NCBI GenBank assembly: GCA_963662715.1
Contig: OY759724.1
Span: forward strand, 2,040,001-2,072,000
Direction of reading: 5' to 3'
DNA from: Candidatus Omnitrophota bacterium
GTDB taxonomy: Bacteria; Omnitrophota; Gorgyraeia; Zapsychrales; JANLHA01
Length of the DNA stretch: 32,000 bases
Position numbers and translations under genes: made by a program. How positions within the stretch are numbered: the first letter of the stretch is position 1; every line of letters starts with the position of its first letter. This document shows, in pieces, positions 5,766 through 30,400 of this stretch. The notes under the pieces are model-generated. The model saw only the letters and a program-made list of their open reading frames with translations. It searched no databases and was not told where the DNA came from.

Positions 5766-5774
5766 GGAAGATGT

Positions 5775-7222: not shown

Positions 7223-7223
7223 G

Positions 7224-11235: not shown

Positions 11236-13154
11236 GAAACAATGTTGCTGTTGTTTTGTGTTGCCATCATAAGCCGTGGTTGATCATGTCAACGTTGATC
11301 ACTTTGGCGGTGCAGGATTATCAGGATTATGATATCTTTGTCCTTTTTCAAGAGGGTGACGGGAAATGTCTTGATAAGCCGTCTTATAGAGAATATTTTC
11401 ATTTGGCGGAGAAACACGGGGTGAATATTCAACTGAGCCCGCATGACAGGCGGGTTCGGGATATTGTCCGTCAAGTCAGTGGTAAGAATGTCCAGGAGAT
11501 CTTCTTGGAAAATGATCATGCTCTTGATTCCGGTGCTTGGTATAAGTTTATCCGCACGAGGAAATGGGAGGAGTATGATTATATTTTTATGATCCAGGAA
11601 GGGACATTGCTGACGCGGGATAACGTTTTATCCTCATCTTTAGGGTTTGTCCGGGAGCGCGGTATTCATTTCCTTTCCGCAGGGCATGAAAAGCGGAAAA
11701 TGTCTAAGAACCATTTTTTGAATTATAATACCCAGGGGGAGCATTCGAGCGAATTTGACCTTTACCATGATGAACAGATTAAAAAGGTTTTTCAGATGTT
11801 TTGTCGCGACCCTGAATTTAAGGAAATCTTTTTGTCCTGGCGCCCTGATTGTCCTTTGACAACGCAGAATCACGTGCCGGATGTTTTTGTCCCTTGGAGA
11901 ATGAAATGTTACCAGATTTTACAAACTGTTAAGCACTTCGGGGAAATTTCTGCTTTCGGGCCGGCTATTCATGAAGACACTTATCGCCGTTCTTTGAAAA
12001 ATATTGTCCGTGATTTTAGTGTCTGGGACAACATCATTTTTCACAAGGATAATGCCCCCGAATGGTTCGGGTGTTCTTGCCAGCATCTTTTCAGCCGTGA
12101 GTTCCTGGAAAAGTTTTCCGCAAAGCTGGAAAATTATGATATTTATGATGTCCTGGATATCCCTTTTGCCGGGACCCCTCTGGAGCCTATTTGGGGATTT
12201 TTGCCGCAATGGCTGGGGTATGACAAATGGTTTTTTGACGGCATTCACCGTATCAGGAAGAATTTTGTGACCTATGCCAGAGAGGATGATCCTGCGGGTA
12301 TGTGCCGGTATATTCATGCTTATTACCGGGACAGGATAAGATTAAAAGTGGAGGGGGATTATTTAAGAATAGGGACACTGCATAAGAAGTATTGTCATGC
12401 TCGACATATGCTGGGGGCACATTTTTGGAGCGATGTTGAGCACAATGGAAAATCGAAAGTCGAGGGTGCCAAAAATTATTGGAGAAATCTGGCTATCCCG
12501 GCAAGAAATGCTTCTCTCATTTTTGATGCTGTCCAGAAATATTATGCTCGGCCGCTTCATCGAGTGCTGGAGTTCGGCTGTGGAGGAGGTGGAAATTTAA
12601 AATATTTTATGGATAAAATCCCCGGGCTTAATACTTGGGGGATAGATGTCAACAGCCGGGTCAATGAGTTGAGGGAGCAATATCCAAATTTTACGGGAAT
12701 AGTTGGGGATGAAAAGAGTCTGGCTCTGTTTGACCGGAACGAATTTGATGTGGCTTTTACGATTTCCGTCTTAGATCACATTCCTTCTGATTTTTTAGTC
12801 AAACAGGCTATCACTGATTTGACGCGCGTGGCACGGTTCGTGATATTGCTCGAACCTTATATTGAAGGGGTGCATGGCGATGTCTCGGATAAGAAGAGAG
12901 GGCAAGTCAAGAAAGGACTTATCAGGCCGGACAAGAAATTTGCGAAGCATTCTTATATTTGGAATTATGATGATATGTTAAAATCTATCGGCGTTACCTA
13001 CATAAAGTATCCTATGTCGCTACACGTCTCTTCGTTAGGGCCATTTTATTATCTTTATGTAATAGAGGCATTCTCCTTAGGAGAAGAAGGTCCAACCAGA
13101 GATTCTCATCTGACAGATGCCATAGGGGCCACTAATTTAGAAGAGTCCAATTAA
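11232..13154 (+). CDS. Two-domain protein: unknown ~420-aa N-terminal region fused to a C-terminal class I SAM-dependent methyltransferase
   Basis: ATGA overlap with the upstream stop (ATG 11232). C-terminal motif I VLEFGCGGGGNLKYF, then GIDVN and FDVAFTISVLDHIP. N-terminus VAVVLCCHHKPWL...DIFVLFQEGDG looks GT-A-like, but I could not recognise a family. Confidence 0.55.
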   Translation: MRNNVAVVLCCHHKPWLIMSTLITLAVQDYQDYDIFVLFQEGDGKCLDKPSYREYFHLAEKHGVNIQLSPHDRRVRDIVRQVSGKNVQEIFLENDHALDSGAWYKFIRTRKWEEYDYIFMIQEGTLLTRDNVLSSSLGFVRERGIHFLSAGHEKRKMSKNHFLNYNTQGEHSSEFDLYHDEQIKKVFQMFCRDPEFKEIFLSWRPDCPLTTQNHVPDVFVPWRMKCYQILQTVKHFGEISAFGPAIHEDTYRRSLKNIVRDFSVWDNIIFHKDNAPEWFGCSCQHLFSREFLEKFSAKLENYDIYDVLDIPFAGTPLEPIWGFLPQWLGYDKWFFDGIHRIRKNFVTYAREDDPAGMCRYIHAYYRDRIRLKVEGDYLRIGTLHKKYCHARHMLGAHFWSDVEHNGKSKVEGAKNYWRNLAIPARNASLIFDAVQKYYARPLHRVLEFGCGGGGNLKYFMDKIPGLNTWGIDVNSRVNELREQYPNFTGIVGDEKSLALFDRNEFDVAFTISVLDHIPSDFLVKQAITDLTRVARFVILLEPYIEGVHGDVSDKKRGQVKKGLIRPDKKFAKHSYIWNYDDMLKSIGVTYIKYPMSLHVSSLGPFYYLYVIEAFSLGEEGPTRDSHLTDAIGATNLEESN

Positions 13155-13204
13155 CGGCATTGGGAACGATTTTTTGATTGGCCTTATCAAGCAAGGAGGG
13201 GCAC

Positions 13205-13978
13205 ATGAAGGTTGTTATTCTGGCCGGGGGGCTTGGTTCGCGGTTAAGTGAGGAAACCTATTTGAAACCCAAGCCGATGATTGATGTCGGGGGCCGGCCG
13301 ATTCTTTGGCATATTATGAAGTTTTATTCCAGTTACGGGTTTAACGATTTTGTTATCTGCCTGGGGTATAAGGGATATATGATTAAAGAATATTTCGCGA
13401 ATTATTTCCTTCATGAAACGGATGTGACCATTGATTTGAACTTTAATAATATGCTGTTTCACGATTCGAAAGCCGAACCCTGGAAGATCACTCTGGTGGA
13501 TACCGGCCTGGATACCATGACCGGGGGAAGAATCAAACGCATACGGAATCATATCGATAATACAACATTTATGCTGACATACGGCGACGGCCTGGGGGAT
13601 GTTCCTCTGAAAGAATTGCTGTCCTTCCATCAGTCGCACAAAAAGATGGCCACGCTCACAGCCGTACAGCCTATCGGACGCTTCGGTGCTTTGGACATGG
13701 CCGGCCAGGCCGTTAAGTCTTTTATTGAAAAGCCTAAAGGGGACGGGGGATGGATCAACGGCGGGTTTTTTGTCCTGGAACCGAAAGTTTTTGATTATAT
13801 TGAAAATGACCAGTCTATCTGGGAAAAAAAACCGCTGGAAGCCATTGCCGCCGAACGGCAGCTGAATGCCTATCAGCATACAGGTTTTTGGAAGCCCATG
13901 GACACTCTTCGGGATAAAAGGGAGCTGGAAGAGTTATGGAATACCGGCAAAGCTCCCTGGAAAGTTTGGAATGATTAA
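13205..13978 (+). CDS. rfbF: Glucose-1-phosphate cytidylyltransferase
   Basis: MKVVILAGGLGSRLSEETYLKPKPMIDVGGRPILWHIMKFYSSYGFNDFVICLGYKGYMIKEYFANYFLH is near-collinear with Salmonella/Yersinia RfbF/DdhA as I recall it. AAGGAGGGG RBS upstream. Confidence 0.93.
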   Translation: MKVVILAGGLGSRLSEETYLKPKPMIDVGGRPILWHIMKFYSSYGFNDFVICLGYKGYMIKEYFANYFLHETDVTIDLNFNNMLFHDSKAEPWKITLVDTGLDTMTGGRIKRIRNHIDNTTFMLTYGDGLGDVPLKELLSFHQSHKKMATLTAVQPIGRFGALDMAGQAVKSFIEKPKGDGGWINGGFFVLEPKVFDYIENDQSIWEKKPLEAIAAERQLNAYQHTGFWKPMDTLRDKRELEELWNTGKAPWKVWND

Positions 13979-15068
13979 TTCGTTTAACAATATTTACCGC
14001 GGAAAGAAGGTCCTTATCACCGGGCATACGGGTTTTAAAGGGTCCTGGTTAAGTCTTTGGCTGAGAGAATTGGGGGCGGATATTGTCGGTTATGCTTTGG
14101 CCCCTGCCACGCAGCCGAACCATTTTGAGCTTTTAGACCTGGATATGGTTTCTGTCATTGACGATATCCGTCATCAGGAGAGCCTTGCAGCCGTTTTCGC
14201 TCAACACCGGCCGGAAATGGTTTTCCATATGGCCGCCCAGTCCCTTGTCCGGTATTCCTATCCCCACCCGGCGGAGACCTTTGAAACAAACGTTATGGGA
14301 ACGGTACATGTTCTGGAAGCCGTAAGGCGGTGCGCTTCGGTTAAGGCGATTGTGAATGTGACCAGCGATAAGTGCTATGATAATAAAGAGTGGGTCTGGG
14401 GATACCGGGAAACAGATCCTTTGGGGGGATATGATCCTTACAGCGCTTCCAAAGGGTGTGCGGAAATCGTTACAAACGCTTATCGCAATTCTTTCTTCCC
14501 CCTTCACCGGTATGGAGAGGAGCATCATGTTCTGCTGGCCAGCGTCCGAGCCGGAAATGTTATCGGGGGAGGGGACTGGGCCGAGGACAGGCTTGTCCCG
14601 GACATCATGCGGGCAGTGGCAGACCATAAACAAGCTGTGATCAGAAATCCTCAGGCGACACGTCCCTGGCAGCATGTTTTGGATCCTTTAAGCGGGTATC
14701 TTTTGCTGGGACAGCAGTTGCTCGAGGGGCGGAAAGAGTTTGCCGAAGCCTGGAACTTCGGACCGGCCGATGACGCTGTTCTGACCGTAGAGGATGTTGT
14801 TCTTGCGGCCCGTTCTTCCTGGGACAGGATATCTTTGAAAATGAATGGCCCGGAAGAACAACCTCACGAGGCGCATGATTTGAAGCTGGACTGTTCCAAA
14901 GCGCACCGTAAACTTCAATGGCAGGGGCTGTGGGAGACCTCCCGGGCGATACAGCAGACGGTTGAGTGGTATAGGGCTTATTTTGAAGACAAGACAATAC
15001 TGAGTCGTGAACAGTTGAAATCCTATATGAATTCGGGCAGGCAGAAGAAAGCTGTGTGGGGGGAATAA
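13971..15068 (+). CDS. rfbG: CDP-glucose 4,6-dehydratase
   Basis: YRGKKVLITGHTGFKGSWLSLWLRELGADIVGYAL... and YSASKGCAE (YxxxK) are classic RfbG/DdhB features. ATGATTAA overlap with rfbF. Confidence 0.93.
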   Translation: MINSFNNIYRGKKVLITGHTGFKGSWLSLWLRELGADIVGYALAPATQPNHFELLDLDMVSVIDDIRHQESLAAVFAQHRPEMVFHMAAQSLVRYSYPHPAETFETNVMGTVHVLEAVRRCASVKAIVNVTSDKCYDNKEWVWGYRETDPLGGYDPYSASKGCAEIVTNAYRNSFFPLHRYGEEHHVLLASVRAGNVIGGGDWAEDRLVPDIMRAVADHKQAVIRNPQATRPWQHVLDPLSGYLLLGQQLLEGRKEFAEAWNFGPADDAVLTVEDVVLAARSSWDRISLKMNGPEEQPHEAHDLKLDCSKAHRKLQWQGLWETSRAIQQTVEWYRAYFEDKTILSREQLKSYMNSGRQKKAVWGE

Positions 15069-15626
15069 ATGCAATTTTCTGAAACTAGAATTCCCGGTGT
15101 TTATATCATTGAGCCCAGGGTTTTTACGGATGAGCGCGGGGCTTTCATCAAGATTTTTCATAAAGAAGAGTTTCAGAATCACGGCCTGGCATGCGAATTT
15201 AAGGAGTCATTTTACTCGATCTCCCAAAAGGGCGTTATCCGGGGCATGCATTTTCAGACCCCGCCGCATGAACATGCCAAATTGATTTATGTGACCCGGG
15301 AAGCCATCAGGGACGTTATTGTCGATATCCGCCGCGGATCGCCGGCCTACGGGGAATATGTTTCGGTTGAACTGTCTGAAGAAAACCGGAAGATGCTTTA
15401 TGTCCCGGCAGGCTGTGCTCATGGTTTTTCCGCTTTGCAGGACGGCGCCTGTGTGATTTACTCGCTGACGTCGGTCTATGCCGAGGATCATGATAAGGGC
15501 ATCCGCTACGATTCATTCGGTTTTGACTGGGGGAGGATTGAAGCTCCCATCGTGTCTTTAAGAGACCAGGGGTTCCCTCCTTTGAAAGATTTTCAGTCCC
15601 CTTTCCGGTACGGGGGATCATCATGA
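15069..15626 (+). CDS. RmlC-family cupin sugar-nucleotide 3,5- (or 5-) epimerase, probably acting on a CDP-4-ketohexose
   Basis: IPGVYIIEPRVFTDERGAFIKIF...IRGMHFQTPPHEHAKLIYVTREAIRDVIVDIRRGSPAYGEYV...LYVPAGCAHGF are dTDP-4-dehydrorhamnose 3,5-epimerase family motifs. The ATG follows the rfbG stop directly. Confidence 0.85.
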   Translation: MQFSETRIPGVYIIEPRVFTDERGAFIKIFHKEEFQNHGLACEFKESFYSISQKGVIRGMHFQTPPHEHAKLIYVTREAIRDVIVDIRRGSPAYGEYVSVELSEENRKMLYVPAGCAHGFSALQDGACVIYSLTSVYAEDHDKGIRYDSFGFDWGRIEAPIVSLRDQGFPPLKDFQSPFRYGGSS

Positions 15627-16531
15627 AAGTTTTTATAACAGGCGCAACGGGGTTCATCGGAAGGCACTTGACGGAAACGCTGATACGTCGTCATACCGGT
15701 GTTGTCGCGCTTGTCCGTCCGTCCACGGACGTTGATCTCCTGGTCCCGGGAACAACCTATTATTGTGACCAGGGGGACACTTCGGCTTTGGTGTCATATG
15801 TTCAGGAACAGAAATTTGACGGTATGATTCATTTGGCGTCCCTGTTCCTGCCGCAGCATAACCCGGGAGATGTTGAGCCTTTGATTCAGTCCAATATCAC
15901 GTTTGCCGCCAGGGTCCTTGAAGCGGCGGTACAGGCGGAGGTCCCCTGGTTTATTAACACGGGAACATTTTGGCAGCATTACCGTAATCAGGATTATAGC
16001 CCGGTGAATTTTTATGCGGCCACCAAACAGGCGTTTGAAGTGATAGCCCAGTATTATTTAGAGACAGCCGGAATTAATTTTGTTACTCTTAAACTTAATG
16101 ATACATTCGGCCCCGGTGACCGGCGGCCTAAAATATTCCACTCCTGGATGAAGATGGCCGAAAACGGGGAAGCCCTGGACATGTCCGGCGGGGAGCAGGT
16201 GATGGATGTCAGTTACATTGACAATGTTATTGATGCCTACGTTCAGATGGTAGACCTGCTGGCCCGGGATCAGGAACGGAAATTCAAAGGCCGGTCTTTT
16301 GCGGTCCGTTCCCAGGAAAGAATGACTTTAAAAGAGTTGGCCGCGGTTTTTGAAGAGGTCACCGGCAAATCCTTGAATATCCGCTGGGGACAACGCGACT
16401 ACCGTGAACGCGAGGTGTTTAATCCCTGGGATCAAGGGCCGACCGTCCCGGGCTGGCAGCCGAGGGTGTCGTTGCGGGAGGGTATTGTAAAGACATTCAA
16501 GCAAGGAGTTGAACATGATCATTATCGCTGA
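15623..16531 (+). CDS. NAD(P)-dependent SDR sugar-nucleotide 4-ketoreductase, RfbS/RfbJ/AscF-like
   Basis: MKVFITGATGFIGRHL (GxxGxxG), FYAATKQAF (YxxxK). Overall layout resembles CDP-paratose/abequose synthases. ATGA overlap with the epimerase gene. Confidence 0.8.
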   Translation: MKVFITGATGFIGRHLTETLIRRHTGVVALVRPSTDVDLLVPGTTYYCDQGDTSALVSYVQEQKFDGMIHLASLFLPQHNPGDVEPLIQSNITFAARVLEAAVQAEVPWFINTGTFWQHYRNQDYSPVNFYAATKQAFEVIAQYYLETAGINFVTLKLNDTFGPGDRRPKIFHSWMKMAENGEALDMSGGEQVMDVSYIDNVIDAYVQMVDLLARDQERKFKGRSFAVRSQERMTLKELAAVFEEVTGKSLNIRWGQRDYREREVFNPWDQGPTVPGWQPRVSLREGIVKTFKQGVEHDHYR

Positions 16532-17237
16532 AATAGGGATTAATCATAACGGAAACATTCATCTGGCCCACGAACTGATCAAACAGGCCAAATTATGCGG
16601 GGCGGATATCGCCAAATTTCAGTTTTATGATCCGGACAAGATTTTCGGCCCTAAAGGCGCCTACCCGGATAAAGATAATTACGAATTTGCATTGACGGTG
16701 CAGTTCGGTTTTGAGGAAGCGAAAAGGCTTAAGGCCTGGTGTGATGAGGAAGGCATAGAGTTCATGGCGTCTGTTTTTGACGAAGAGAGGTTTGAGTGGA
16801 TGGAGGCCCTGGGGATGAAAAGGTATAAGGTCGCCAGCCGCACCGTGCAGGAAGAGAGTCTTTGTAAAAGAATTTTTTCCACTCAAAAAGAAGTTTTCAT
16901 TTCTTTGGGATTCTGGGAGAATGCGGATGTGCCTTATGATTATGAGAACGCCAAATACCTTTATTGCGTGGCGAAATATCCGGCGGAATATAAGGACATC
17001 CATCTGCCGGTGTCTTTTAAAGCCACGCCCTATGACGGCTTCAGCGACCATACGATCGGCATTGAAGCCGCGCTTGTCGCTGTTGCCAGGGGCGCGAATA
17101 TTATCGAAAAGCATTTTACGCTAAATAAGGGCCTTGTCGGTCCGGATCATGTTTGCAGTGCGACTCCGGAAGAGCTGAGCATCTTGTGCCAGCAGTCGCG
17201 GGAGATGGAGAAATTTATTAATGTGGCCGAAGATTAG
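16515..17237 (+). CDS. NeuB-family (PEP-condensing sialic-acid-synthase-like) TIM-barrel protein lacking the C-terminal SAF domain
   Basis: MIIIAEIGINHNGNIHLAHELIKQAKLCGADIAKFQ...YKVASRTV...GFSDHTIG...IIEKHFTLNK. Only 240 aa and ends shortly after the barrel. AAGGAG at 16503-16508 lies 6 nt upstream of ATG 16515; the track's TTG at 16509 is less likely. Confidence 0.7.
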   Translation: MIIIAEIGINHNGNIHLAHELIKQAKLCGADIAKFQFYDPDKIFGPKGAYPDKDNYEFALTVQFGFEEAKRLKAWCDEEGIEFMASVFDEERFEWMEALGMKRYKVASRTVQEESLCKRIFSTQKEVFISLGFWENADVPYDYENAKYLYCVAKYPAEYKDIHLPVSFKATPYDGFSDHTIGIEAALVAVARGANIIEKHFTLNKGLVGPDHVCSATPEELSILCQQSREMEKFINVAED

Positions 17238-21453: not shown

Positions 21454-22533
21454 ATGCAACAAAGCAAATTAGCACAATCGGTTCAAATTATTAAGCAGCG
21501 AGGCGTCAGGGATTTTTTAAGAATTGCCAGCAATTATTATCTTTATAATTCTCATACCCGGAAAAATCTTCCTGCCCGCTGTCTGACAAAACCGATTCAT
21601 TTGCAGGTCGAAACAACAAGGTTATGTAATCTTCGCTGCAAAATGTGTGAATACTCATATCGTAACGGCGAGAGAAGTTTCATGTCTCTTGAGACGTTCA
21701 AGAAAGTTTTCGGCCAGTTCCCCCAGCTTCGTTCGATGGACTTAACCGGCATTGGGGAACCGTTCTGCAACCCTGATTTCATGAAAATCGTACGCTACGG
21801 GAAAAAACATGGCGTAAAGATCGAATTTTCGACCAACGGACTTCTTTTAACAGAAGCTCATATGGATGAACTGATAGAACTGGATGTGGATAAAATATCT
21901 TTTTCCGTCGATGCCTCAACCCGGGAAACGCATGAAAAGATCCGGCAGGGGTCCTCTTTTGAAAAATTAACAAGTCATATTAAATTGTTAAGCCGGAAGA
22001 AGCGGGGTTTGAGACGGCAGAAACCGGTTGTTTATTTGAGTTACATCGTTTCGCTTGAGAATATCCTGGAGGCCGAGGCGTTTCTTGATCTGGCCGGGGA
22101 GGTCGGGGCCCAAACCGTTGTTTTCCGTGATCTGCTGGTTTTTGAGTCCGGGGATTATTCGGACAAGGATAAGGTTGAGAGTCTGTCCTTGCAATGGCGG
22201 CAAGATTTGGGGAGGAAAATATTGGATAAGGCACGGCATCTGGATATTGAGGCAGCTTTGCCTGATTCCCTGTCCATCTCTGGTCCGAAGAAAAAAATAT
22301 TCTGTTTCCGCCCCTGGCGTTCAGCTTTTGTGGATGTTTTCGGCCATATGTATCCCTGTTGTCGTTTGACGCAAAAGAATGTTAATATCATGGATTATTC
22401 TTTCGGCCACCTGCTTTCCCAGGATGTCAATGAGATATGGAATAATCCCCGATATGGCGCGTTGCGGAAGACCCTGGTTCATCCCACCGCGATCCCCCGT
22501 TTGTGTGAAGGGTGCGGTTGCCTGAGAAAATAA
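21454..22533 (+). CDS. Radical SAM enzyme with C-terminal SPASM/twitch-like auxiliary Cys cluster
   Basis: ETTRLCNLRCKMCEY (CxxxCxxC), GIGEPFCNPDF, STNG. C-terminal CFRPWRSAFVDVFGHMYPCC (C-x12-G-x4-C) and CEGCGC. Confidence 0.8.
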   Translation: MQQSKLAQSVQIIKQRGVRDFLRIASNYYLYNSHTRKNLPARCLTKPIHLQVETTRLCNLRCKMCEYSYRNGERSFMSLETFKKVFGQFPQLRSMDLTGIGEPFCNPDFMKIVRYGKKHGVKIEFSTNGLLLTEAHMDELIELDVDKISFSVDASTRETHEKIRQGSSFEKLTSHIKLLSRKKRGLRRQKPVVYLSYIVSLENILEAEAFLDLAGEVGAQTVVFRDLLVFESGDYSDKDKVESLSLQWRQDLGRKILDKARHLDIEAALPDSLSISGPKKKIFCFRPWRSAFVDVFGHMYPCCRLTQKNVNIMDYSFGHLLSQDVNEIWNNPRYGALRKTLVHPTAIPRLCEGCGCLRK

Positions 22534-22566
22534 CTCCGGCCGGAAGAACTCTTCATAAGGAATTTT

Positions 22567-23994
22567 ATGAAATTATTTTTTATAGAGCCGCCGCTTATCA
22601 ATGCTTCCAACGAGGCGTGTCTTGCCCGCGGAGAACTGGCCGCCCCGGATGTTGCGCCTTTCCCCAATTTAGGCATCGCCTATTTGGTGGCGGTTGCCGA
22701 ACAACTGGGGCATCAATGTCGCGTTGTTGACATGAACGTCTCCCCGGGCGGCTTTGAGCAAAAGGTCCTTGGCTTCTCTCCTGATATTTTGTTTTTAACC
22801 GCCCTGACGACGCAATACCGGGCTGTTAAAATTATCATCAATACGTTTAAAGGGCGAATTCCCATTGTCCTGGGCGGGCCGCATGCCAGCATTTTTGAGG
22901 AAAGACTTTTAGACGACGGGGTGGATATTGTTGTCGTGGGAGAAGGGGAAGAGACCTTGCGTTCCCTGCTGGCCCGTTTCCCTGACCAGCTGGGCAGTGT
23001 GCCGGGAGTAATCTTTAAGAAGGAAGGACAGGTTGTCAAAACCGGCCGGCCGGAGCGCGTGTTAAATCTTGACGATCTGCCGTTCCCGGCCTGGCATCAT
23101 TATCATCTTGATTTATACGACAATATGTACGGCGGCCGGAAATGTTTGCCGGTGATATCGAGCCGTGGCTGTCCCTTCCATTGCGTTTATTGTTTTAAAG
23201 GGGTTTTTGGCGATAAGATCCGGATGAGAAGCGCGGCTAACGTTGTTGAGGAAATAATGTTTTTTAAAAATAAATATGATATCGGAGCCGTGCTTTTTTG
23301 CGATGATTTGTTCACTGTTAAACGGAAACGCGTTGAGGAATTCTGTCATCTTCTCCTGGAGAAAAAAATGGATATTATCTGGCGGTGTCTGGGGAGAGCG
23401 GACCAGGTTGATTACGATCTTTTATCCCTTATGAAAAAGGCCGGATGTCGCTCGATTGCTTTAGGTATTGAATCCGGCAATCAGGAAGTTCTGGATAAAG
23501 TGGGGAAGCGGATCAGCCTGAAGCGCGTTGCGGAAGCGATTCAGGCGTGCCGCCGTGTGGGGATTGTTTCCAAAGGTTATTACATTATCGGCCTGCCCTG
23601 GGATACCCATAAAACGGTGCAGGATACGATCAATTTTGCTAAAAAGAACCGGACGACGCAATCGCAGTTTACGCTTCCTCTGGCTTATCCGGGAACGGAA
23701 TTGTGGGACATTGGAAAGCAAAAAGGGCTTCCGGTTGAAGACTATGTCGAAACTTTTTCCTGGGATAAGAATCTGCCCCCGTATTCATTCTCGGATGATT
23801 TGAGCGAGAAAGATATTGAATATTATATCCGGACGGCCCGCAGGATTGATGCGTGGGCGTATGTCGTTAAAAGATTGCGGAAAATGAAGTGGCAAGAATA
23901 TCCTGGTTTTATAAAATGGATTTGTATTAAAAGTTATGCCCTGCTCAGAGCCAAATTGGCTATGATGTTCAGATTAGCTAAACATCATGCCTGA
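22567..23994 (+). CDS. B12-binding-domain radical SAM enzyme (class B)
   Basis: N-terminal cobalamin-domain-like segment (PNLGIAYLVAVAEQLGHQCRVVDMN...IVLGGPHASIF...VVVGEGEETL). SSRGCPFHCVYCFK (CxxxCxxC). GIESGNQEVL. Confidence 0.85.
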   Translation: MKLFFIEPPLINASNEACLARGELAAPDVAPFPNLGIAYLVAVAEQLGHQCRVVDMNVSPGGFEQKVLGFSPDILFLTALTTQYRAVKIIINTFKGRIPIVLGGPHASIFEERLLDDGVDIVVVGEGEETLRSLLARFPDQLGSVPGVIFKKEGQVVKTGRPERVLNLDDLPFPAWHHYHLDLYDNMYGGRKCLPVISSRGCPFHCVYCFKGVFGDKIRMRSAANVVEEIMFFKNKYDIGAVLFCDDLFTVKRKRVEEFCHLLLEKKMDIIWRCLGRADQVDYDLLSLMKKAGCRSIALGIESGNQEVLDKVGKRISLKRVAEAIQACRRVGIVSKGYYIIGLPWDTHKTVQDTINFAKKNRTTQSQFTLPLAYPGTELWDIGKQKGLPVEDYVETFSWDKNLPPYSFSDDLSEKDIEYYIRTARRIDAWAYVVKRLRKMKWQEYPGFIKWICIKSYALLRAKLAMMFRLAKHHA

Positions 23995-24053
23995 TAATCT
24001 TTGGCGGGGAGGGTGTGGGAAGTCAACATAAAGGACCTTATAAGGAGTTTCTG

Positions 24054-25736
24054 GTGGAAATAAAGGTTGGTCATATTTGTCGGCTGAAAGATCCCGAGCG
24101 CATTTGCGCGGAGACGCCCGTGGACGCGGTTTTGATTGTCGATATCCTGGCTTTTAATAGTTATGTTTTTATCCCCCTGGTGCCGGCCGGCGCCCTGCCA
24201 GGGGACAAAGATATCATTCTTGAAAGCCGGGAAAGTCTTAAGGGCTCCCTGCCGCAGGTGAAGGCCGCCTGTGCCTGCATGTCCTCGCTTAAAGGGGAGG
24301 ATATCGCGGAGGTGGTGGATGAGCTTAAGAAGCCGGCGTTGGAAAAAATTCTAAAGATATGTATTAAACGTTCAACGGAGAATTATTATGAATCCGTCCA
24401 CGCTCCTGCTCAGTCTTCGGCTTTTGTCCCGGGGCAGTCCCGGATTCCCTATGCGGGCAGGGTTTATACCGCAGAAGAGATCGGGAACCTGGTGGATTCT
24501 TCCCTGGAATTTTATCTGACCGCCAGGCGTTATGACAAAGCCTTTTGTGAAAATTTCAATAATTTTTTATCAGGAGCCGGGCTTCCTGGGGCGGTCCGGA
24601 GCTTGACGGTTAATTCCGGGTCATCGGCCAATCTGTTGGCCTTGGGCGCGCTCACCTCTTATAAGCTGGATGATTTGAGCCTGAAGGAGGGGGATGAAGT
24701 CATTACGGCTGCCGCCGGATTCCCGACAACGATTGCGCCGATCATCCAGCATAAACTGACGCCGGTTTTTGTGGATGTTGATTTGGGGAGTTATAATATA
24801 AAGACCTCACGGCTTGAGGAGGCGGTCACGGAAAAAACCAAGGCGATTTGCGTGGCGCATACTTTGGGTATCCCGTTTGATTTAGAACGTGTGCTGGAGC
24901 TGGCCGAAAAACATCGTCTTTGGATCATTGAAGATAATTGTGACGCGCTCGGGGCCGAGTTTCAACTGAAGAAGGAATATCATCTTATCAAAGGGCGGTG
25001 CGTTTCCGGGAAAAGATACACCGGGACCTTTGGACACATAGGAACATCGAGTTTTTATCCGGCGCATCATATTACAATGGGAGAAGGCGGGGCTGTTTAC
25101 ACTCAGGATCTGGAGCTTTATCGGATTTTATTGTCCCTGAGGGACTGGGGCCGGGACTGCTGGTGCGAGCCCGGACAGGATAATACGTGTCAAAAACGTT
25201 TCGGCTGGCGGTTGGGAGATTTGCCGGTCGGCTATGATCATAAATACATATATTCCCATTTGGGATATAATCTGAAGATTACGGATTTGCAGGCGGCGGT
25301 TGGTTTGGCTCAATTGAAAAAGCTGCCGTCTTTCATCGAAGCCCGGAGACGACACTGGCAACTGCTCTGCGACGGACTGAAAGATTTGGCGGATTATTTT
25401 ATCCTGCCGAGCTGTCCCGTTCAGGCTACGCCGTCCCCCTTTGGTTTTGCGCTAACGGTGCAGCCCGGGGCCGGTTTCAAGCGAGACGATATCACTCAGT
25501 ATCTGGAGAGCCAGGGCATTCAGACCCGGACGGTTTTTGCCGGGAATATTTTAAAACAGCCGGCTTTTGTTTACACCCGGCCCGGGCACCGTGTTGTCGG
25601 AGACTTGGCCAACACGGACCGTGTCATGAACGATACGTTCTGGCTGGGCGTTTATCCCGGGTTAAATGACGAGAAACTGGAATATGTTATGGACCATGTC
25701 CGGAGGTTTATCAAGTGCAAGATCAAAGTCTGTTAA
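24054..25736 (+). CDS. rfbH: CDP-6-deoxy-L-threo-D-glycero-4-hexulose 3-dehydrase (E1, PMP/[2Fe-2S]; RfbH/DdhC/AscC-like) with an extra ~90-100 aa N-terminal region
   Basis: From FVPGQSRIPYAGRVY onward it is collinear with Salmonella RfbH as I recall it (SGSSANLLALGALTS, GDEVITAAAGFPTT, EDNCDALG). FYPAHHITMGEGGAV has His in place of the PLP Lys. RDWGRDCWCEPGQDNTCQKRF is the C-x-C-x7-C Fe-S motif. YDHKYIYSHLGYNLKITDLQAA. Start: AAGGAG at 24042-24047 lies 6 nt before in-frame GTG 24054. Alternatives are GTG 24015 or ATG 24279. Confidence 0.85.
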   Translation: MEIKVGHICRLKDPERICAETPVDAVLIVDILAFNSYVFIPLVPAGALPGDKDIILESRESLKGSLPQVKAACACMSSLKGEDIAEVVDELKKPALEKILKICIKRSTENYYESVHAPAQSSAFVPGQSRIPYAGRVYTAEEIGNLVDSSLEFYLTARRYDKAFCENFNNFLSGAGLPGAVRSLTVNSGSSANLLALGALTSYKLDDLSLKEGDEVITAAAGFPTTIAPIIQHKLTPVFVDVDLGSYNIKTSRLEEAVTEKTKAICVAHTLGIPFDLERVLELAEKHRLWIIEDNCDALGAEFQLKKEYHLIKGRCVSGKRYTGTFGHIGTSSFYPAHHITMGEGGAVYTQDLELYRILLSLRDWGRDCWCEPGQDNTCQKRFGWRLGDLPVGYDHKYIYSHLGYNLKITDLQAAVGLAQLKKLPSFIEARRRHWQLLCDGLKDLADYFILPSCPVQATPSPFGFALTVQPGAGFKRDDITQYLESQGIQTRTVFAGNILKQPAFVYTRPGHRVVGDLANTDRVMNDTFWLGVYPGLNDEKLEYVMDHVRRFIKCKIKVC

Positions 25737-26581
25737 CGGTTCTCATCACAAATTATAACACCCTGGACTTTGTTAAGGTCTCACTTCTGGCCCTTCAGAA
25801 GCTTACGATCAACCCGTATAAAGTTTTTATTAATGACAACGGTTCCCGTCCGCGGGAAACGGCGGAGCTGAAAAATATTGCAAAGGACAATCCTCATGTT
25901 TGGGTGAATTTTAGAAAGAGTTCGCGCAAACAGACATCTTACGCCCATGCCGAGGCCCTGGATTTGCTGATCAGCCGTGTTGAAACAAAATATGCTGTTG
26001 TCCTGGACAGTGACTGCACGTTCCTTATGAAAGGGTGGGACGAGTATATGATCCGTCAAGTCGATGATGCGGTGAAGATTGTCGGTTCTCCGCTGGCCAA
26101 AGGGCGAAGCGGTCTGAAACCCGATGATTTTCCTTTTCAGTTTGCGGTTTTATTTGATACGGCTGTTTATAAAAGCCTTAACATCAGCTGTATGCCGGTG
26201 GATATCGCCGGAGGAAAAGACACCTGCTGGGAATGGAAACATAAGTTTACAAACGGAGGATATAAAGGGAAAGTCTTTTCCGCGCTTTGCACCCGGGATT
26301 ATAAGGAAGGGCCGTTCAGGAGCATCACCGGGGTTGCTGAATATTACACCGAGGACGGACGTCTCATCGGGTCCCATTACGGGAGAGGCTCCACACAGGG
26401 CATTACGAAATTCCGGGCCGGAATATACCGTATCCCGTATCTTTCGAAACTGTTGAACATTTATGTCGGGTTAAAAGAGAAAAAGGACTGGTTAGGAATT
26501 TGCCGGCGGATTATTGAAGAACAAGCGGACCTTTGTCCCGCCAGCACCCCGGCCGCCCGGCCCGTCATGGCAGGAAGATAA
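25715..26581 (+). CDS. GT2-like (GT-A fold) glycosyltransferase
   Basis: LLTVLITNYNTLDFVKVSLLALQKL...VFINDNGS...YAVVLDSDCTF (DxD-like). GTG start with GGAGG 8 nt upstream. Overlaps the rfbH 3' end by 22 nt. Confidence 0.6.
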   Translation: MQDQSLLTVLITNYNTLDFVKVSLLALQKLTINPYKVFINDNGSRPRETAELKNIAKDNPHVWVNFRKSSRKQTSYAHAEALDLLISRVETKYAVVLDSDCTFLMKGWDEYMIRQVDDAVKIVGSPLAKGRSGLKPDDFPFQFAVLFDTAVYKSLNISCMPVDIAGGKDTCWEWKHKFTNGGYKGKVFSALCTRDYKEGPFRSITGVAEYYTEDGRLIGSHYGRGSTQGITKFRAGIYRIPYLSKLLNIYVGLKEKKDWLGICRRIIEEQADLCPASTPAARPVMAGR

Positions 26582-26605
26582 AAATTTTTGTTTAAAGGTG
26601 AGATC

Positions 26606-27889
26606 ATGAAAAAAAGAATCGCCAACCTTGTCGCCGGTAACAGCTGTTTGTTTGGGGCGGCATCGGCTTTGAAATTTGTTAATTTCAGAAAATTTAATAA
26701 ACTGCATTGTTTCCGCTCAGCACGGAAAAATGAAGTGAAAGCGACCTGTTTGCCCTGCCGGGGGGTTTTGAATTTAACAGATATGTGCAATTACCGCTGC
26801 GCCTTTTGTGAAATTCATTATTTTCATGATAAGTTTCCGGAGCTGCACAAAAATTTTATCGATATAGAAGTGGTCAAAAAGTATGAAGATTGGATTAAAA
26901 ACCTGGACAGCCTGGCTTTCTACGGTTCTGTGGGCGAACCCATGATGAACAAGCAATTCGCACACATCGCCCGGTACTTAAAGACCAGATATCCGTCCCT
27001 GCAATTAAGCGTGACGACAAACGGATATTTTCTGAATCAGGAGACGGCGGATATCCTGATCGATTGCGGTTTTGACCATGTCCTGGTTTCTCTGCACGCG
27101 GCGAAAGGGGAGACGTATAAAAGACTTTTAGGCGGAAATTTGGACAGGATCCTGAAAAATATCCTCTATTATACAAAGCATAAGAAGCCGCAACAGGAAG
27201 TGGCCGTGAATTTTATGCTGAACCGGATTAACGCGCAGGATATTTATTCAGTTGTCGACCTGATCCTGGACCTGCAGTGTGATTACCTTGTTGTTAATAA
27301 TTATTATGACGTCCGCAATAAATTGGAGCGGGAAATTTCTTATTATTTCAGCCCGGAGGAGGGGAATCATATCCTGGACAACCTCTACTCCTATGCCCGT
27401 AAACAGGGGCTCCGTCTGATGCCCCTTGCCCCGCCGTATTATTATGAGCTGAAGGACTATAGCGATCTTGATTATGATGACTTGACCGTTTCGCAAGGTG
27501 TCTGCCCGGAGCCCTGGCGTTCGGTTCAGTTTAAAGGAACCTTGGAACACGCGGATTCGCATTATATTTCTGTCTGCAACCGCATTGAATTGATGCGTTT
27601 GAACTATAAAGAGTTTTTTGCGGACGGGACAAAAACTTTTTCCGATATCTGGAACCATCCTATCCTGCAGTTTTTGAGAGAGACAGTGAATTCAGAAAAC
27701 ATGAACCTGATATGCCGGTTATGTAAATCCCAGGAATACAAAGTCATCCGGTGTCTGGATAATGACCGTTATCGCATCCTGCGGGACCATGCGGTGAATG
27801 AATTTTACCGGAATTTCAAAAAGCATTGCGCCGGGGCCTATCAGCCTGTCAAGGGGCTGTATCTGCTGGATGAAATTCCTTTTAGTTAA
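26606..27889 (+). CDS. Radical SAM enzyme with SPASM/twitch-like C-terminal Cys motifs (paralogue of 21454-22533)
   Basis: LNLTDMCNYRCAFCEI (CxxxCxxC), GSVGEPMMNKQF, TTNG. C-terminal CPEPWRSVQF...SVCNR...DIWNHP...ICRLC parallels CFRPWRSAFV...PCCR...EIWNNP...LCEGC of the other enzyme. Confidence 0.75.
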   Translation: MKKRIANLVAGNSCLFGAASALKFVNFRKFNKLHCFRSARKNEVKATCLPCRGVLNLTDMCNYRCAFCEIHYFHDKFPELHKNFIDIEVVKKYEDWIKNLDSLAFYGSVGEPMMNKQFAHIARYLKTRYPSLQLSVTTNGYFLNQETADILIDCGFDHVLVSLHAAKGETYKRLLGGNLDRILKNILYYTKHKKPQQEVAVNFMLNRINAQDIYSVVDLILDLQCDYLVVNNYYDVRNKLEREISYYFSPEEGNHILDNLYSYARKQGLRLMPLAPPYYYELKDYSDLDYDDLTVSQGVCPEPWRSVQFKGTLEHADSHYISVCNRIELMRLNYKEFFADGTKTFSDIWNHPILQFLRETVNSENMNLICRLCKSQEYKVIRCLDNDRYRILRDHAVNEFYRNFKKHCAGAYQPVKGLYLLDEIPFS

Positions 27890-27929
27890 ATTTTTTGGGT
27901 AAGGATTTTTGATTGTTGAGAAAGGACAG

Positions 27930-29426
27930 ATGTTAGAACGCACAAAAGATCAAGTGAAAATTTTGTTGATGTACCCCCCGACCGGATCGATCGGGACCTA
28001 CAATACGCCGACAGGATTGCTTTATATCGCAACGGTCCTTCAGCATCATGGATATTTCGTCCGGCTTGTCGACTGTTCGGTCGAGCCGCGCTATCAGGAT
28101 ATTTTAGACCGGGAAATACCGGACACGGATTTGCTCGGCATTTACGCGATGAGCGTGCATATCCGTTATCTTCTCCCGGAGCTCAGGCGACTGAAGGCCT
28201 TGAATCCACGGCTCAAAATTATCTGGGGCGGCCCGCATGCGATCCTTTTCCCCGAACAGACGGCCAGCAGCCCTTTGGCGGATATCGTGACCCGGGGAGA
28301 GGGGGAAGACTTGATGCTGGAAATTGTCCGGGAATATGAAGCCGGCACCCTGGATTACCGCAAGATCAAAGGAATTTATTTTAAGGATAACGGGCAGATC
28401 ACTTCAACCCCTCCGCGGCCTTTTGTCGACGTCAATCAACTTCCGTTTCTGGACTGGTCTTTTTTAAAGAAAGACGTCCTTGATACGGTGCGTAAAGGAA
28501 TTATCCGGGTGCAGGCCAGCCGGGGTTGCCCTTACCGATGCGCCTTCTGTATTAATGTGCTTACGAATAACAGAAAGATGCGGTATCGGGATCCGGAAAA
28601 GGTCGTTGATGAAATCGAATACTTAACCCGGGAATATCATATCCACCGGGTCGGCTTCCGGGATGAGGTCTTTATGTCCAACCGTAAACAGGTGAAGGAT
28701 ATTGCCCAGGGGATTCTTGACCGGGATATCCATATTACCTGGCTGGCTAATCCCCGGGTCGAGTATCTCAGGGAATCCTATATCGACGATGCTTATTTAA
28801 AACTGCTGGCCGATTCCGGCTGCAACAAGCTGCAGTGCGGAGGAGAATCCGGGTCCCAGCGGATTCTGGATATGCTGCATAAAGGGATTAAAGTGGATGA
28901 TATCCTTAATTTTGTCCGGAGAACCAAAAAATATAATATTTATCCGCTGGTCGCTTTTATGACCGGGATTCCCACCGAGACAAAAGCGGAGCAGATGCAG
29001 ACGCTGAGGCTTATCAGGGATATTTTACGTATACAGCCGGTAGCTTTTATCAACGGCCCGGCGAATTACCGCCCTTATCCCGGAGGGGAACTGTATGATA
29101 TGTGCGTGAAGGAGTATCATTTGAAGATGCCGGATTCCCTGGAAGGCTGGGAGAAAGCGGAAATTCTGGGGGGGAGTGCGCCTCCGTGGGTCGAAGACGT
29201 CTGTTTCAACCAGTTTTTGTGGACCAGCACGAAGGCGGCGACCTATTCTTTCTCCTATTTGTGGAAACAGATCCGCCGGAATCCTTTGAAAGGGTTGGCG
29301 ATTTCCTTTTTAAGCATAATTTCGAGGATGCGTTTACGCTGGCTTTTTTACCGTTTCCCTTTTGAATTTTATCTGTTGAATTTTTATTATCAAAGAATCC
29401 TTAAAAAAGTCCCGGAATACAGTTAA
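27930..29426 (+). CDS. B12-binding-domain radical SAM enzyme (class B)
   Basis: VKILLMYPP...PTGLLYIATVLQHHGYFVRLVDCS...IIWGGPHAILF...VTRGEGEDLM. ASRGCPYRCAFCIN (CxxxCxxC). GGESGSQRIL. Start at ATG 27930; the track's TTG at 27909 is possible. Confidence 0.85.
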   Translation: MLERTKDQVKILLMYPPTGSIGTYNTPTGLLYIATVLQHHGYFVRLVDCSVEPRYQDILDREIPDTDLLGIYAMSVHIRYLLPELRRLKALNPRLKIIWGGPHAILFPEQTASSPLADIVTRGEGEDLMLEIVREYEAGTLDYRKIKGIYFKDNGQITSTPPRPFVDVNQLPFLDWSFLKKDVLDTVRKGIIRVQASRGCPYRCAFCINVLTNNRKMRYRDPEKVVDEIEYLTREYHIHRVGFRDEVFMSNRKQVKDIAQGILDRDIHITWLANPRVEYLRESYIDDAYLKLLADSGCNKLQCGGESGSQRILDMLHKGIKVDDILNFVRRTKKYNIYPLVAFMTGIPTETKAEQMQTLRLIRDILRIQPVAFINGPANYRPYPGGELYDMCVKEYHLKMPDSLEGWEKAEILGGSAPPWVEDVCFNQFLWTSTKAATYSFSYLWKQIRRNPLKGLAISFLSIISRMRLRWLFYRFPFEFYLLNFYYQRILKKVPEYS

Positions 29427-29431
29427 GGACA

Positions 29432-30400
29432 ATGATTATGCTGAACGGCTTGCGGCTCGCTTTGGGTAACGAAATCAAAGAAGGCCCCTGGGGAGGAGGC
29501 AATCAGTTCCTGTCTTCTTTTAAAACGCATTTAGAGAGTAAGGGAGCCAAGGTTTTCTTCCGTTTAGAAGATGATCTGGATGTGATTATTTTGTTTAATC
29601 CCCGCAGAGAGAGCGGGACGTTCCACCATAAGGATGTTAAACGGTATAAAAAACGTTTTCCTAAAGCGAGAGTGATTCACCGGATCAACGAAACCGATAA
29701 GGCTAAAAACACCCGGTTTATCGACCGTTTACGCCTTGAGGCCAATAAAGTGGCCGATGCCGTTATTTTTATCAGCGAATGGGTCAGAGACTATTATATC
29801 AGCAAAGGTTTTGACCAGAGGATCCCTTCCTTCGTCATCCGCAACGGACCTGATGAAAATATTTTCAACTCGCGGGGATACACCCCGTGGCAGCCCAACG
29901 GGTCCCTGAGAGTTGTTACGCATCATTGGTCGGATAATCCCATGAAAGGTATTGATATTTATCAATATTTTGATAGACTTCTGAATGATCCCTGGATGAA
30001 GAGGTTATTCAACTTTACGTATATTGGCCGTTACCCTAAAGGGGTTCAATTGCAGCAGACACAGTGCGTCCCCCCTTTATTCGGTGCGGATCTGGCGCGT
30101 GAACTGAAAAAGCATCATGTTTATTTGACGGCGGCCCGATGGGAATCCTGCGGTATGCATCAGCTGGAAGGCGCCTGTTGCGGCCTGCCGGTTCTTTATA
30201 TTGATGAAGGCGGGGGCGTCGTTGAGACCTGCCGGGATGCCGGGATTAAATTTACCGTTGAGACCTTCCCGGTCAGCCTTTTCAAAATGAGGGAAGAATA
30301 TCCTTCCTTGCAGCCGAAGTTAAACGCGTTCCCTTTTAATGCCCGCTTGATGTGTCAGGAATATGAGAATGTTATCGAGAAAATTCTTATGAGCTCCTAG
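29432..30400 (+). CDS. GT-B fold glycosyltransferase, GT4-like
   Basis: C-terminal ESCGMHQLEGACCGLPVLYIDEGG fits the E-x7-E / G-x-P-V region of GT4 retaining transferases. ATG 29438 is an alternative start with better RBS spacing. Confidence 0.65.
   Translation: MIMLNGLRLALGNEIKEGPWGGGNQFLSSFKTHLESKGAKVFFRLEDDLDVIILFNPRRESGTFHHKDVKRYKKRFPKARVIHRINETDKAKNTRFIDRLRLEANKVADAVIFISEWVRDYYISKGFDQRIPSFVIRNGPDENIFNSRGYTPWQPNGSLRVVTHHWSDNPMKGIDIYQYFDRLLNDPWMKRLFNFTYIGRYPKGVQLQQTQCVPPLFGADLARELKKHHVYLTAARWESCGMHQLEGACCGLPVLYIDEGGGVVETCRDAGIKFTVETFPVSLFKMREEYPSLQPKLNAFPFNARLMCQEYENVIEKILMSS

Follow-up and report, generated by a model that had tools for sequence, protein, structure and literature searches.

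Two twitch and B12-binding radical SAM gene pairs in a glycan gene cluster of an Omnitrophota bacterium are probably distinct cassettes rather than copies of one module

A 32,000-nt stretch of the genome of a Candidatus Omnitrophota bacterium (contig OY759724.1, positions 2,040,001 to 2,072,000; this whole stretch is called the window) carries two gene pairs, in each of which a twitch-type radical S-adenosylmethionine (SAM) gene is followed by a B12-binding radical SAM gene. An initial annotation of this DNA took the pairs for two copies of one module, each serving a different sugar. The locus raises the question of whether one unit occurs here twice, and what such units might do. Comparing the four genes with their relatives in other loci, we find that the two pairs appear to be separately assembled cassettes belonging to distinct orthologous groups, not copies. 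Our favoured explanation, held with slightly more confidence than doubt, is that these two distinct cassettes of a surface-glycan operon would tailor sugars, the twitch enzymes by redox chemistry or epimerisation and the B12 enzymes by C-methylation. The radical SAM genes of the window are listed here.

21454 to 22533, + strand: SPASM1, radical SAM protein with a twitch-type C-terminal domain, 359 aa (Pfam Radical_SAM 75.5 bits, SPASM 51.2 bits)
22567 to 23994, + strand: B12-1, B12-binding radical SAM protein of class B type, 475 aa (Pfam B12-binding 74.4 bits, Radical_SAM 85 bits)
26606 to 27889, + strand: SPASM2, radical SAM protein with a divergent four-cysteine, twitch-like C-terminal domain, 427 aa (Pfam Radical_SAM only)
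27930 to 29426, + strand: B12-2, B12-binding radical SAM protein, 498 aa (Pfam B12-binding 56.6 bits, Radical_SAM 78.3 bits)
67 to 1197, + strand: B12-0, B12-type radical SAM gene truncated at its 5′ end by the window edge (Pfam Radical_SAM 86.8 bits)

All five products match Radical_SAM (PF04055) with 69-87 bits against a cutoff of 29.5, which places them in the radical SAM superfamily. The layout given by the initial annotation was reproduced: open reading frames (ORFs) stand at these coordinates, both pairs keep the same order on the + strand, and the spacers are 33 nt in pair 1 (SPASM1 and B12-1) and 40 nt in pair 2 (SPASM2 and B12-2). With alternative TTG starts at 26588 and 27909, the second spacer would shrink to 19 nt. 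Among database proteins, P0026 with 427 aa and P0054 with 475 aa agree with the starts at 26606 and 22567, and no database protein was retrieved for comparison with the start at 27930 (P-numbers denote database proteins and L-numbers loci fetched for comparison). When the 31 co-directional genes, 2 twitch and 3 B12 genes among them, are put in random order, both twitch genes stand directly before a B12 gene in 0.6% of cases. The arrangement is not a trivial outcome of chance.

Is it then one module, duplicated? A duplication of an ancestral twitch-B12 module, with obligate partners in each pair and one copy for each of two sugars, would account for the equal order, strand and short spacers. 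It would also fit the full-length homology of the twitch proteins, auxiliary-cluster motifs included: in a profile-profile comparison, the SPASM1 and SPASM2 families align over 302 columns with a probability of 99.96% (E 3.6e-39). However, the sequences themselves are far apart. SPASM1 and SPASM2 share 23% identity (E 3e-17) and B12-1 and B12-2 share 28% (E 9e-42), while B12-0 is 29% identical to B12-1 and 28% to B12-2, making the three B12 proteins equidistant. No nucleotide similarity between the pairs was found by blastn (best E 0.07).

Closer relatives are also numerous. An exhaustive HMMER search with SPASM1 against 1.84 billion cluster representatives (50% identity) returned 340 representatives at E<=1e-30; at E<=1e-10 the number was 12,351, and SPASM2 reached 55.7 bits (E 4.8e-10) on the same scale; more than 12,000 clusters are therefore closer to SPASM1 than SPASM2 is. 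In the search with B12-1, the 120th database match still scored 287 bits, compared with 134 bits for B12-2, so that no fewer than 120 proteins, counted as 90%-identity cluster representatives, lie nearer to B12-1 than B12-2 does, and the true figure probably runs to thousands. In a rough neighbour-joining tree of the B12 proteins of all fetched loci, B12-0, B12-1 and B12-2 fall into three separate clades, and the B12 genes that adjoin twitch genes spread over at least four. The best non-orthologous matches of SPASM2, in a local and biased sequence set, lie in the broad SPASM1-like family. These matches would also fit a duplication. We take them to mean that SPASM1 and SPASM2 are remote members of a single broad twitch group that occurs in sugar loci. 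By the pairwise alignments, which included the truncated gene at 67-1197, and by the B12 tree, the pairs are not mutual closest relatives and are related at the subfamily or superfamily level only. The initial annotation had itself named this degree of relatedness as contrary to a duplication, and its duplicated module finds no support here.

We then asked whether each pair is kept together elsewhere. Pair 1 is. Its two genes lie side by side on one strand, with their order unchanged, in six of seven independent orthologue contexts whose flanks differ, as expected of a conserved cassette. The SPASM1 orthologues have 40-53% identity, and the B12-1 orthologues directly after them 59-65%. The adjacent arrangements are given below.

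L079/L080: epimerase-RfbG-RfbH-SPASM1-B12-1
L082: RfbH-SPASM1-B12-1
L081 (Sedimentisphaerales): SPASM1-B12-1 adjacent
L162/L163 and four similar places: RfbF-RfbG-epimerase-reductase-RfbH-GT2b-SPASM1-B12-1
L164: SPASM1-B12-1 adjacent

In L162/L163, the start of B12-1 overlaps the stop of SPASM1 by 4 nt. The exception is L001/L078, a 124.8-kb contig on which the SPASM1 and B12-1 orthologues lie about 33 kb apart in one huge glycan region, with SPASM1 directly before RfbF-RfbG-epimerase-reductase-RfbH-GT2b. More distant SPASM1 relatives (43-44% identity; L002 and L083) have no B12 neighbour. The two genes that follow pair 1 in the window are these.

24015 to 25736, + strand: RfbH/E1-type CDP-4-keto-6-deoxyglucose 3-dehydrase (NCBIfam NF011936, 647.4 bits against a cutoff of 423, residues 110-568)
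25715 to 26581, + strand: GT2b, GT2-family glycosyltransferase (Pfam Glycos_transf_2 38.7 bits)

RfbH belongs to the pyridoxamine phosphate-dependent 3-dehydrases and is no glycosyltransferase. Its N-terminal extension of about 110 aa has no Pfam match and is present in L079, L007 and L008 and absent from L001 and L162. An RfbH gene lies next to or near the SPASM1 orthologues of L001, L079, L082 and L162: RfbH and/or GT2b adjoins pair 1 in the window, L079, L082 and L162, and RfbH follows about 3.4 kb downstream in L001. RfbH and GT2b are themselves adjacent in L001 (61% identity), L162 (55%), L007 and L079. Pair 1 is an inherited two-gene cassette whose recurrent company is RfbH and GT2b.

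Pair 2 behaves differently. We collected SPASM2 orthologues from 13 loci (32-54% identity) of Planctomycetales, Dehalococcoidia, Pirellulales, Thermoplasmata, a deltaproteobacterium, Flavobacteriales, Alphaproteobacteria and Promethearchaeota. A co-directional B12-2 orthologue follows SPASM2 in the close relatives L003 and L006 only; in L004 it is convergent, and the 10 other loci have no adjacent B12 gene (among them L013, which ends 26 nt past the gene and is uninformative). The gene that usually accompanies SPASM2 is the one found after B12-2 in the window.

29432 to 30400, + strand: putative GT-B (GT4-like) glycosyltransferase (sub-threshold GT4/GT1 Pfam matches, Glycos_transf_1 25.4 against 26.4)

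A homologue of this gene directly adjoins SPASM2 in 7 of the 13 loci, spanning Dehalococcoidia, Pirellulales, Alphaproteobacteria and Promethearchaeota, and is present in 10; it is the commonest conserved neighbour of SPASM2. Identity to B12-2 is 77-78% for the orthologues of L003 and L006, 53% for that of L004 and 67% for that of L081. In the last, a 10-kb contig, the gene comes after the B12-1 orthologue and no SPASM2 is found. The simplest reading takes SPASM2 and the GT4-like gene as the older cassette; B12-2 would then have entered between the two genes in the lineage of the window. The initial annotation had described a conserved pair, each copy followed by glycosyltransferase genes. The first part holds for pair 1; for pair 2, co-directional adjacency was seen only in the close relatives L003 and L006. 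As for the second, a GT2 gene does come after RfbH, but RfbH itself is a dehydrase and the GT4 assignment behind pair 2 is sub-threshold only. These loci also speak against a duplicated module with obligate partners. Most SPASM2 orthologues stand without an adjacent B12 gene, L081 has B12-2 without SPASM2, and the two genes of pair 1 are separated on the L001/L078 contig. The wide recurrence of twitch-B12 adjacency leaves room for a very ancient paired ancestor; all in all, we consider the duplication improbable.

Two observations concern the pair-2 region itself. While the B12-2 proteins of L003 (9251-10834) and L006 (11247-12797) are 77-78% identical to that of the window, the adjacent SPASM2 proteins reach no more than 53-54%, from which unequal rates or different histories of the pair-2 genes follow. 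The closest GT4-like homologue outside L003 and L006 (60% over all 322 aa) is contained in a 657-aa protein of L162 (11869-13842), a locus that has pair 1 and lacks SPASM2 and B12-2.

What kinds of enzymes do the pairs encode? The CX3CX2C motif is C58/C62/C65 in SPASM1, conserved in all family sequences that cover the region, and C61/C65/C68 in SPASM2, invariant in its family. The family alignments further show C284, C302, C303, C351 and C354 as invariant for SPASM1 and C300, C324, C370 and C373 for SPASM2, the latter four aligning to the SPASM1 motifs. Common to both families, in this order, are C-x-(R/E)-P-W, (P/V)-C, IWN-x-P and C-x-x-C; the shared C-terminal cysteine motifs that the initial annotation had picked out are thus real and conserved in both orthologue families. 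Both proteins show the pattern of the twitch subclass, approximately C-x18-24-C-x46-48-C-x2-C. A full SPASM domain has at least seven C-terminal cysteines with CX2CX5CX3C; we counted five (SPASM1) and four (SPASM2) invariant ones, no CX2CX5CX3C in either protein and no Pfam SPASM match in SPASM2. We predict from these motifs that both are twitch-type proteins with a single auxiliary [4Fe-4S] cluster, rather than full SPASM proteins. Among PDB sequences, the SPASM1 family profile matches BtrN best, over the BtrN twitch domain; the cysteine motifs there line up with C284, C302 and C351/C354. SPASM1 also has spare conserved cysteines, namely C105 beside a GEP SAM-binding-like motif and one of C302/C303; the SPASM2 family alignment contains none.

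AlphaFold2 (AF2) modelling gave a predicted local distance difference test score (pLDDT) of 86.7 for SPASM1 and 92.1 for SPASM2. The folds nearest to the SPASM1 model are SuiB, BlsE, DesII and SkfB, and the structure and sequence neighbours of the twitch proteins are generic (these four, viperin, MoaA, anSME and BtrN). None of the named twitch/SPASM equivalogs (tungsten-cofactor maturase, BlsE, PqqE, AhbD, MoaA and others) reached its NCBIfam cutoff: the best scores were 150.6 against 380 (TIGR04317) for SPASM1 and 97.2 against 380 for SPASM2, and the BlsE model gave 42.6 bits against 400.

The two B12 enzymes share one domain plan, as initially annotated. Both match Pfam B12-binding and Radical_SAM in the class B architecture, an N-terminal PF02310 domain (74.4 and 56.6 bits against a cutoff of 32.1) followed by a radical SAM core. 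From this domain content, cobalamin use and methyl transfer may be regarded as candidate functions. Their best PDB sequence matches are AprD4, 9ccb, CysS and TokK, B12-1 giving E-values from 1e-11 to 1e-21 and B12-2 from 4e-8 to 5e-19.

Do twitch and B12 genes keep company beyond these orthologues? Scanning metagenomes with the SPASM1 family profile, we obtained 80 loci of 26-51% identity (85 with the earlier loci; median length 7 kb). In 20-21 of the 85 (about 25%), the gene right beside the twitch gene encodes a B12 radical SAM protein; 29 loci contain such a gene at all. Genes for an SDR (short-chain dehydrogenase/reductase)-type nucleotide-sugar dehydratase/epimerase adjoin the twitch gene in 12 loci and occur in 33, and nucleotidyltransferase, NeuB/PseI and GT2 genes are also frequent. 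B12 ORFs number 50 in 701 kb of these loci, whereas 62 control loci built around other radical SAM families contain 7 in 960 kb, a roughly tenfold enrichment that bears out the co-occurrence suggested by the initial annotation. Certain SPASM1-like proteins are fused to a GT4 glycosyltransferase (P0177) or an Anp1-type glycosyltransferase domain (P0253, P0276), others (P0180, P0193, P0269) to a methyltransferase, to TPR and sulfotransferase domains, or to aldo-keto reductase and ferredoxin domains; proteins with two or three tandem radical SAM-twitch units exist as well. These findings place the twitch family in glycan biosynthesis, and its association with B12 radical SAM genes is real but not obligatory.

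The partners in a pair could, however, be functionally uncoupled: these islands are dense in radical SAM genes, each enzyme might act independently, and adjacency might come from shuffling and co-regulation. The combinations are indeed variable. In L081 (1-10494), four B12 radical SAM genes and a single twitch gene fit within 10 kb, and L099, L108, L113, L122 and L126 each carry, one after the other, a twitch gene and two or three B12 genes from different clades. Pair 1 is split in L001/L078, and in many loci a twitch gene stands alone beside SDR or glycosyltransferase genes. Class B methylases, moreover, need no partner, and pair adjacency may thus reflect a shared pathway alone. On the other side, pair 1 keeps its order and adjacency in six of seven contexts while its flanks change, the 4-nt start/stop overlap suggests translational coupling, and the tenfold enrichment argues for at least a shared pathway. 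The absence of coupling is possible for pair 2 and hard to square with the conservation of pair 1; taking both pairs together, we think it rather unlikely.

The surroundings of the pairs indicate the likely substrate class. Assigning gene functions by Pfam and NCBIfam profile scans, we found that all credible genes of the window lie on the + strand, tightly packed and many of them overlapping, with intergenic gaps of at most 109 nt everywhere between 17.2 and 31.3 kb. Downstream of B12-0 comes a pseudaminic-acid set of PseC, a cytidylyltransferase, PseG, a NeuD-type acetyltransferase and PseI. A weakly Maf/MptE-like protein, a second cytidylyltransferase and two function-unassigned proteins follow, and then the genes of the dideoxyhexose set.

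13178 to 16531, + strand: CDP-dideoxyhexose set of RfbF-like cytidylyltransferase, RfbG-like 4,6-dehydratase, RmlC-like 3,5-epimerase and SDR reductase (Pfam NTP_transferase, GDP_Man_Dehyd/Epimerase, dTDP_sugar_isom, Epimerase)

This RfbF/RfbG/epimerase/reductase set also flanks the SPASM1 orthologues in L001 and L162. A GT2 gene, an MsbA-like exporter of the ATP-binding cassette (ABC) type and two methyltransferase genes lie between a short NeuB-like gene and SPASM1. From 21454 on, the order is SPASM1, B12-1, RfbH, GT2b, SPASM2, B12-2, the GT4-like gene and two methyltransferase genes. By its gene content, the window appears to be a large co-directional operon or island for the biosynthesis of a surface or protein glycan, and its five radical SAM genes are most likely sugar-tailoring enzymes. 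The sugar context proposed initially was upheld, both pairs lying amid glycan genes and pair 1 being tied elsewhere to nucleotide-sugar and glycosyltransferase genes.

A substrate other than a sugar would be a ribosomal peptide or a lipid/polyprenyl carrier. Combinations of SPASM/twitch and B12 radical SAM genes are typical of clusters for RiPPs (peptides made on the ribosome and modified after translation). In the proteusin pathways, the radical SAM epimerase PoyD works with the B12 radical SAM C-methyltransferases PoyB and PoyC on a ribosomal peptide, and the pairing of a radical epimerase or oxidase with B12 C-methylases in one cluster resembles ours. The models for ApyD (a RiPP enzyme) and for "lipid biosynthesis B12/rSAM" are among the sub-threshold NCBIfam matches, and SuiB and SkfB among the top structural neighbours. 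Against a peptide, the gaps of at most 109 nt leave no room for a precursor-peptide gene, and no protease, leader-binding (RiPP recognition element, RRE) or peptide-specific export genes were identified. Unlike a proteusin cluster, the locus has no precursor gene and its context consists entirely of sugar genes: every neighbour to which a function could be assigned, in the window as in related loci, belongs to the sugar-nucleotide, glycosyltransferase or methyltransferase genes. Members of the family are fused to glycosyltransferases. We judge a non-sugar substrate very unlikely, while a lipid-linked glycan is possible and compatible with sugar tailoring.

How might the two cassettes tailor sugars? 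Cassette 1 (SPASM1 and B12-1) would act on the CDP-3,6-dideoxyhexose made by RfbF, RfbG, RfbH, the epimerase and the reductase, or on that sugar after its transfer by GT2b. Cassette 2 (SPASM2 and the GT4-like gene, here with B12-2 in between) would tailor the sugar handled by the GT4-like protein. In the twitch enzymes, a 5′-deoxyadenosyl radical would abstract a hydrogen from a sugar C-H bond, leading to oxidation to a keto sugar, as in BtrN, or to epimerisation, as in HygY and NeoN. The B12 enzymes would methylate an unactivated sugar carbon in the manner of GenK and GenD1, and the many SAM methyltransferases of the operon would add O- or N-methyl groups. The spare conserved cysteines of SPASM1 could serve as hydrogen donors. 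As they are present in SPASM1 and missing in SPASM2, the data are compatible with an epimerase-type SPASM1 and a dehydrogenase-type SPASM2, which is speculation. A narrower proposal is that SPASM1 and B12-1 are a dedicated radical system working on a CDP-3,6-dideoxyhexose intermediate or product to give an undescribed C-methylated or C-branched, possibly re-epimerised, dideoxy sugar; we offer it tentatively, with more doubt than confidence. Here we infer the substrates, the reaction types and any sequential action of the partners on one sugar.

A number of points weigh against sugar tailoring by these cassettes as set out above. AF2 modelling and Foldseek gave generic SPASM/twitch folds, among them the peptide-modifying SuiB and SkfB, and no substrate-level assignment. 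All named B12 equivalogs (HpnJ, BchE, ApyD, PhpK, BzaD, ladderane-type and others) fell far below their NCBIfam cutoffs, the best scores being 178.5 against 577.6 for B12-1 (HpnJ) and 160.3 against 481 for B12-2 (BchE), with B12-1 reaching 155 against 481 on the BchE model. C-methylation is the commonest precedent for B12-binding radical SAM enzymes, but BchE, HpnJ and OxsB catalyse reactions other than methylation, and AprD4 carries a B12-binding domain and is not known to use cobalamin. Class B methylases act without a partner, as noted above, no twitch-B12 fusion occurs among 18 long multidomain SPASM1-like proteins, and an obligate two-enzyme partnership is not required mechanistically. 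The GT4-like assignment is weak, and this putative glycosyltransferase has no PDB sequence match. The control loci of the enrichment come from different taxa, and the B12 tree is a rough neighbour-joining tree with no support values. Finally, the chemistry of all four families is inferred.

Which known systems come closest? C-methylation of sugars by cobalamin radical SAM enzymes is established for GenK, GenD1, Fms7 and MoeK5 (PMC9204698). These enzymes have the N-terminal B12-binding domain and radical SAM core also seen in B12-1 and B12-2, but they serve antibiotics, whereas the context here is primary glycoconjugate synthesis. No orthology of B12-1 or B12-2 to characterised enzymes was found with the NCBIfam equivalog models, GenK and GenD1 themselves not being among the comparisons. 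On the twitch side, BtrN of the butirosin pathway, the founding twitch radical SAM enzyme, oxidises a secondary alcohol. It resembles the present proteins in its radical SAM core, its four-cysteine C-terminal auxiliary-cluster domain and its sugar-like substrate; it differs in that the structure-based alignment shows only about 16% identity, and an N-terminal, helical stretch of about 45 aa adds to the difference. HygY and NeoN are radical SAM carbohydrate epimerases with a cysteine as hydrogen donor, for which SPASM2 has no spare conserved cysteine. Unlike BtrN, HygY and NeoN, the twitch genes here stand in a cell-surface glycan operon and not in an aminoglycoside cluster. DesII, BlsE and AprD4, among the top structure or sequence neighbours, are radical SAM enzymes that act on nucleotide- or nucleoside-linked sugars or aminoglycosides; such enzymes can deaminate, decarboxylate or dehydrate activated sugars, and DesII is not known to have an auxiliary cluster.

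The dideoxyhexose part recalls the classical CDP-3,6-dideoxyhexose pathways (ascarylose, abequose, tyvelose), with RfbF, RfbG, RfbH, an RmlC-like epimerase and a reductase all present. It departs from them in that RfbH is here accompanied by the radical SAM pair instead of any known tailoring gene and that no E3 reductase gene (AscD/RfbI) was found in the window, though the set otherwise looks complete. We rejected SPASM1 as a substitute for the missing E3 reductase of RfbH as a main idea, because a SAM-cleaving twitch enzyme is no plain electron carrier and because RfbH sets without SPASM1 occur (L007, L008).

Searching the full-text literature, we found no described glycan pathway with a twitch-B12 pair, in agreement with the initial annotation, and nothing specific on twitch radical SAM sugar epimerases. 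To our knowledge, radical SAM tailoring of sugars has so far been known almost only from antibiotic pathways (aminoglycosides, nucleosides), and we know of no previous description of cobalamin/radical-SAM chemistry in the biosynthesis of primary cell-surface (nucleotide-sugar) glycans. If the proposal is true, SPASM1 and B12-1 would be the first such case in primary cell-surface glycan synthesis, and the wider twitch family, which lies next to or is fused to glycosyltransferases in Planctomycetota, Chloroflexota, Asgard archaea and other anaerobes, would be a widespread anaerobic glycan-tailoring toolkit of uncultured bacteria and archaea. Cassette and family together would extend radical chemistry to ordinary glycoconjugate biosynthesis and point to new sugars, for example C-methyl dideoxyhexoses. 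For annotation, the message is that of two distinct orthologous groups for separate study and no duplicated module; the feature is a good genome-mining lead for radical sugar chemistry, not a demonstrated new system.

Several further observations concern the rest of the window. The related loci nearest to it, with 87-91% identity for some genes, are L006 (an uncultured Planctomycetales metagenome-assembled genome) and L003 (a metagenome contig). Embedded among the pseudaminic-acid genes are pyruvate dehydrogenase (PDH)-type E1alpha and E1beta genes and a lone lipoyl/biotinyl-carrier domain (4848-7222); this trio may point to a nonulosonic acid that bears an unusual substituent, acyl or C-branched. 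The 657-aa product of 11181-13154 has a C-terminal methyltransferase domain as its sole match and a large N-terminal part without any; it is kept in L001, L003 and L006 (52-63% identity), as two ORFs in L006. For RfbG and the second cytidylyltransferase, the longest-ORF starts (13866 and 9159) reach 113 and 83 nt into the preceding genes, and their true starts probably lie further downstream, since the alignments with homologues begin about 36-45 residues in. The short NeuB-like gene at 16509-17237, present besides PseI, encodes 242 aa without a SAF domain and is 87-88% identical in L003 and L006, far better kept than most of its neighbours.

As to the final glycan, the methylated O-glycan of the anammox S-layer (PMC5088730) was considered as a lead and dropped, with nothing tying the window to that organism or glycan. 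In L164, an STT3/AglB-type oligosaccharyltransferase fused to a DnaJ domain is encoded at 5544-8231, 3 kb downstream of the pair-1 orthologues, which hints that at least some glycans of such loci are attached to proteins.

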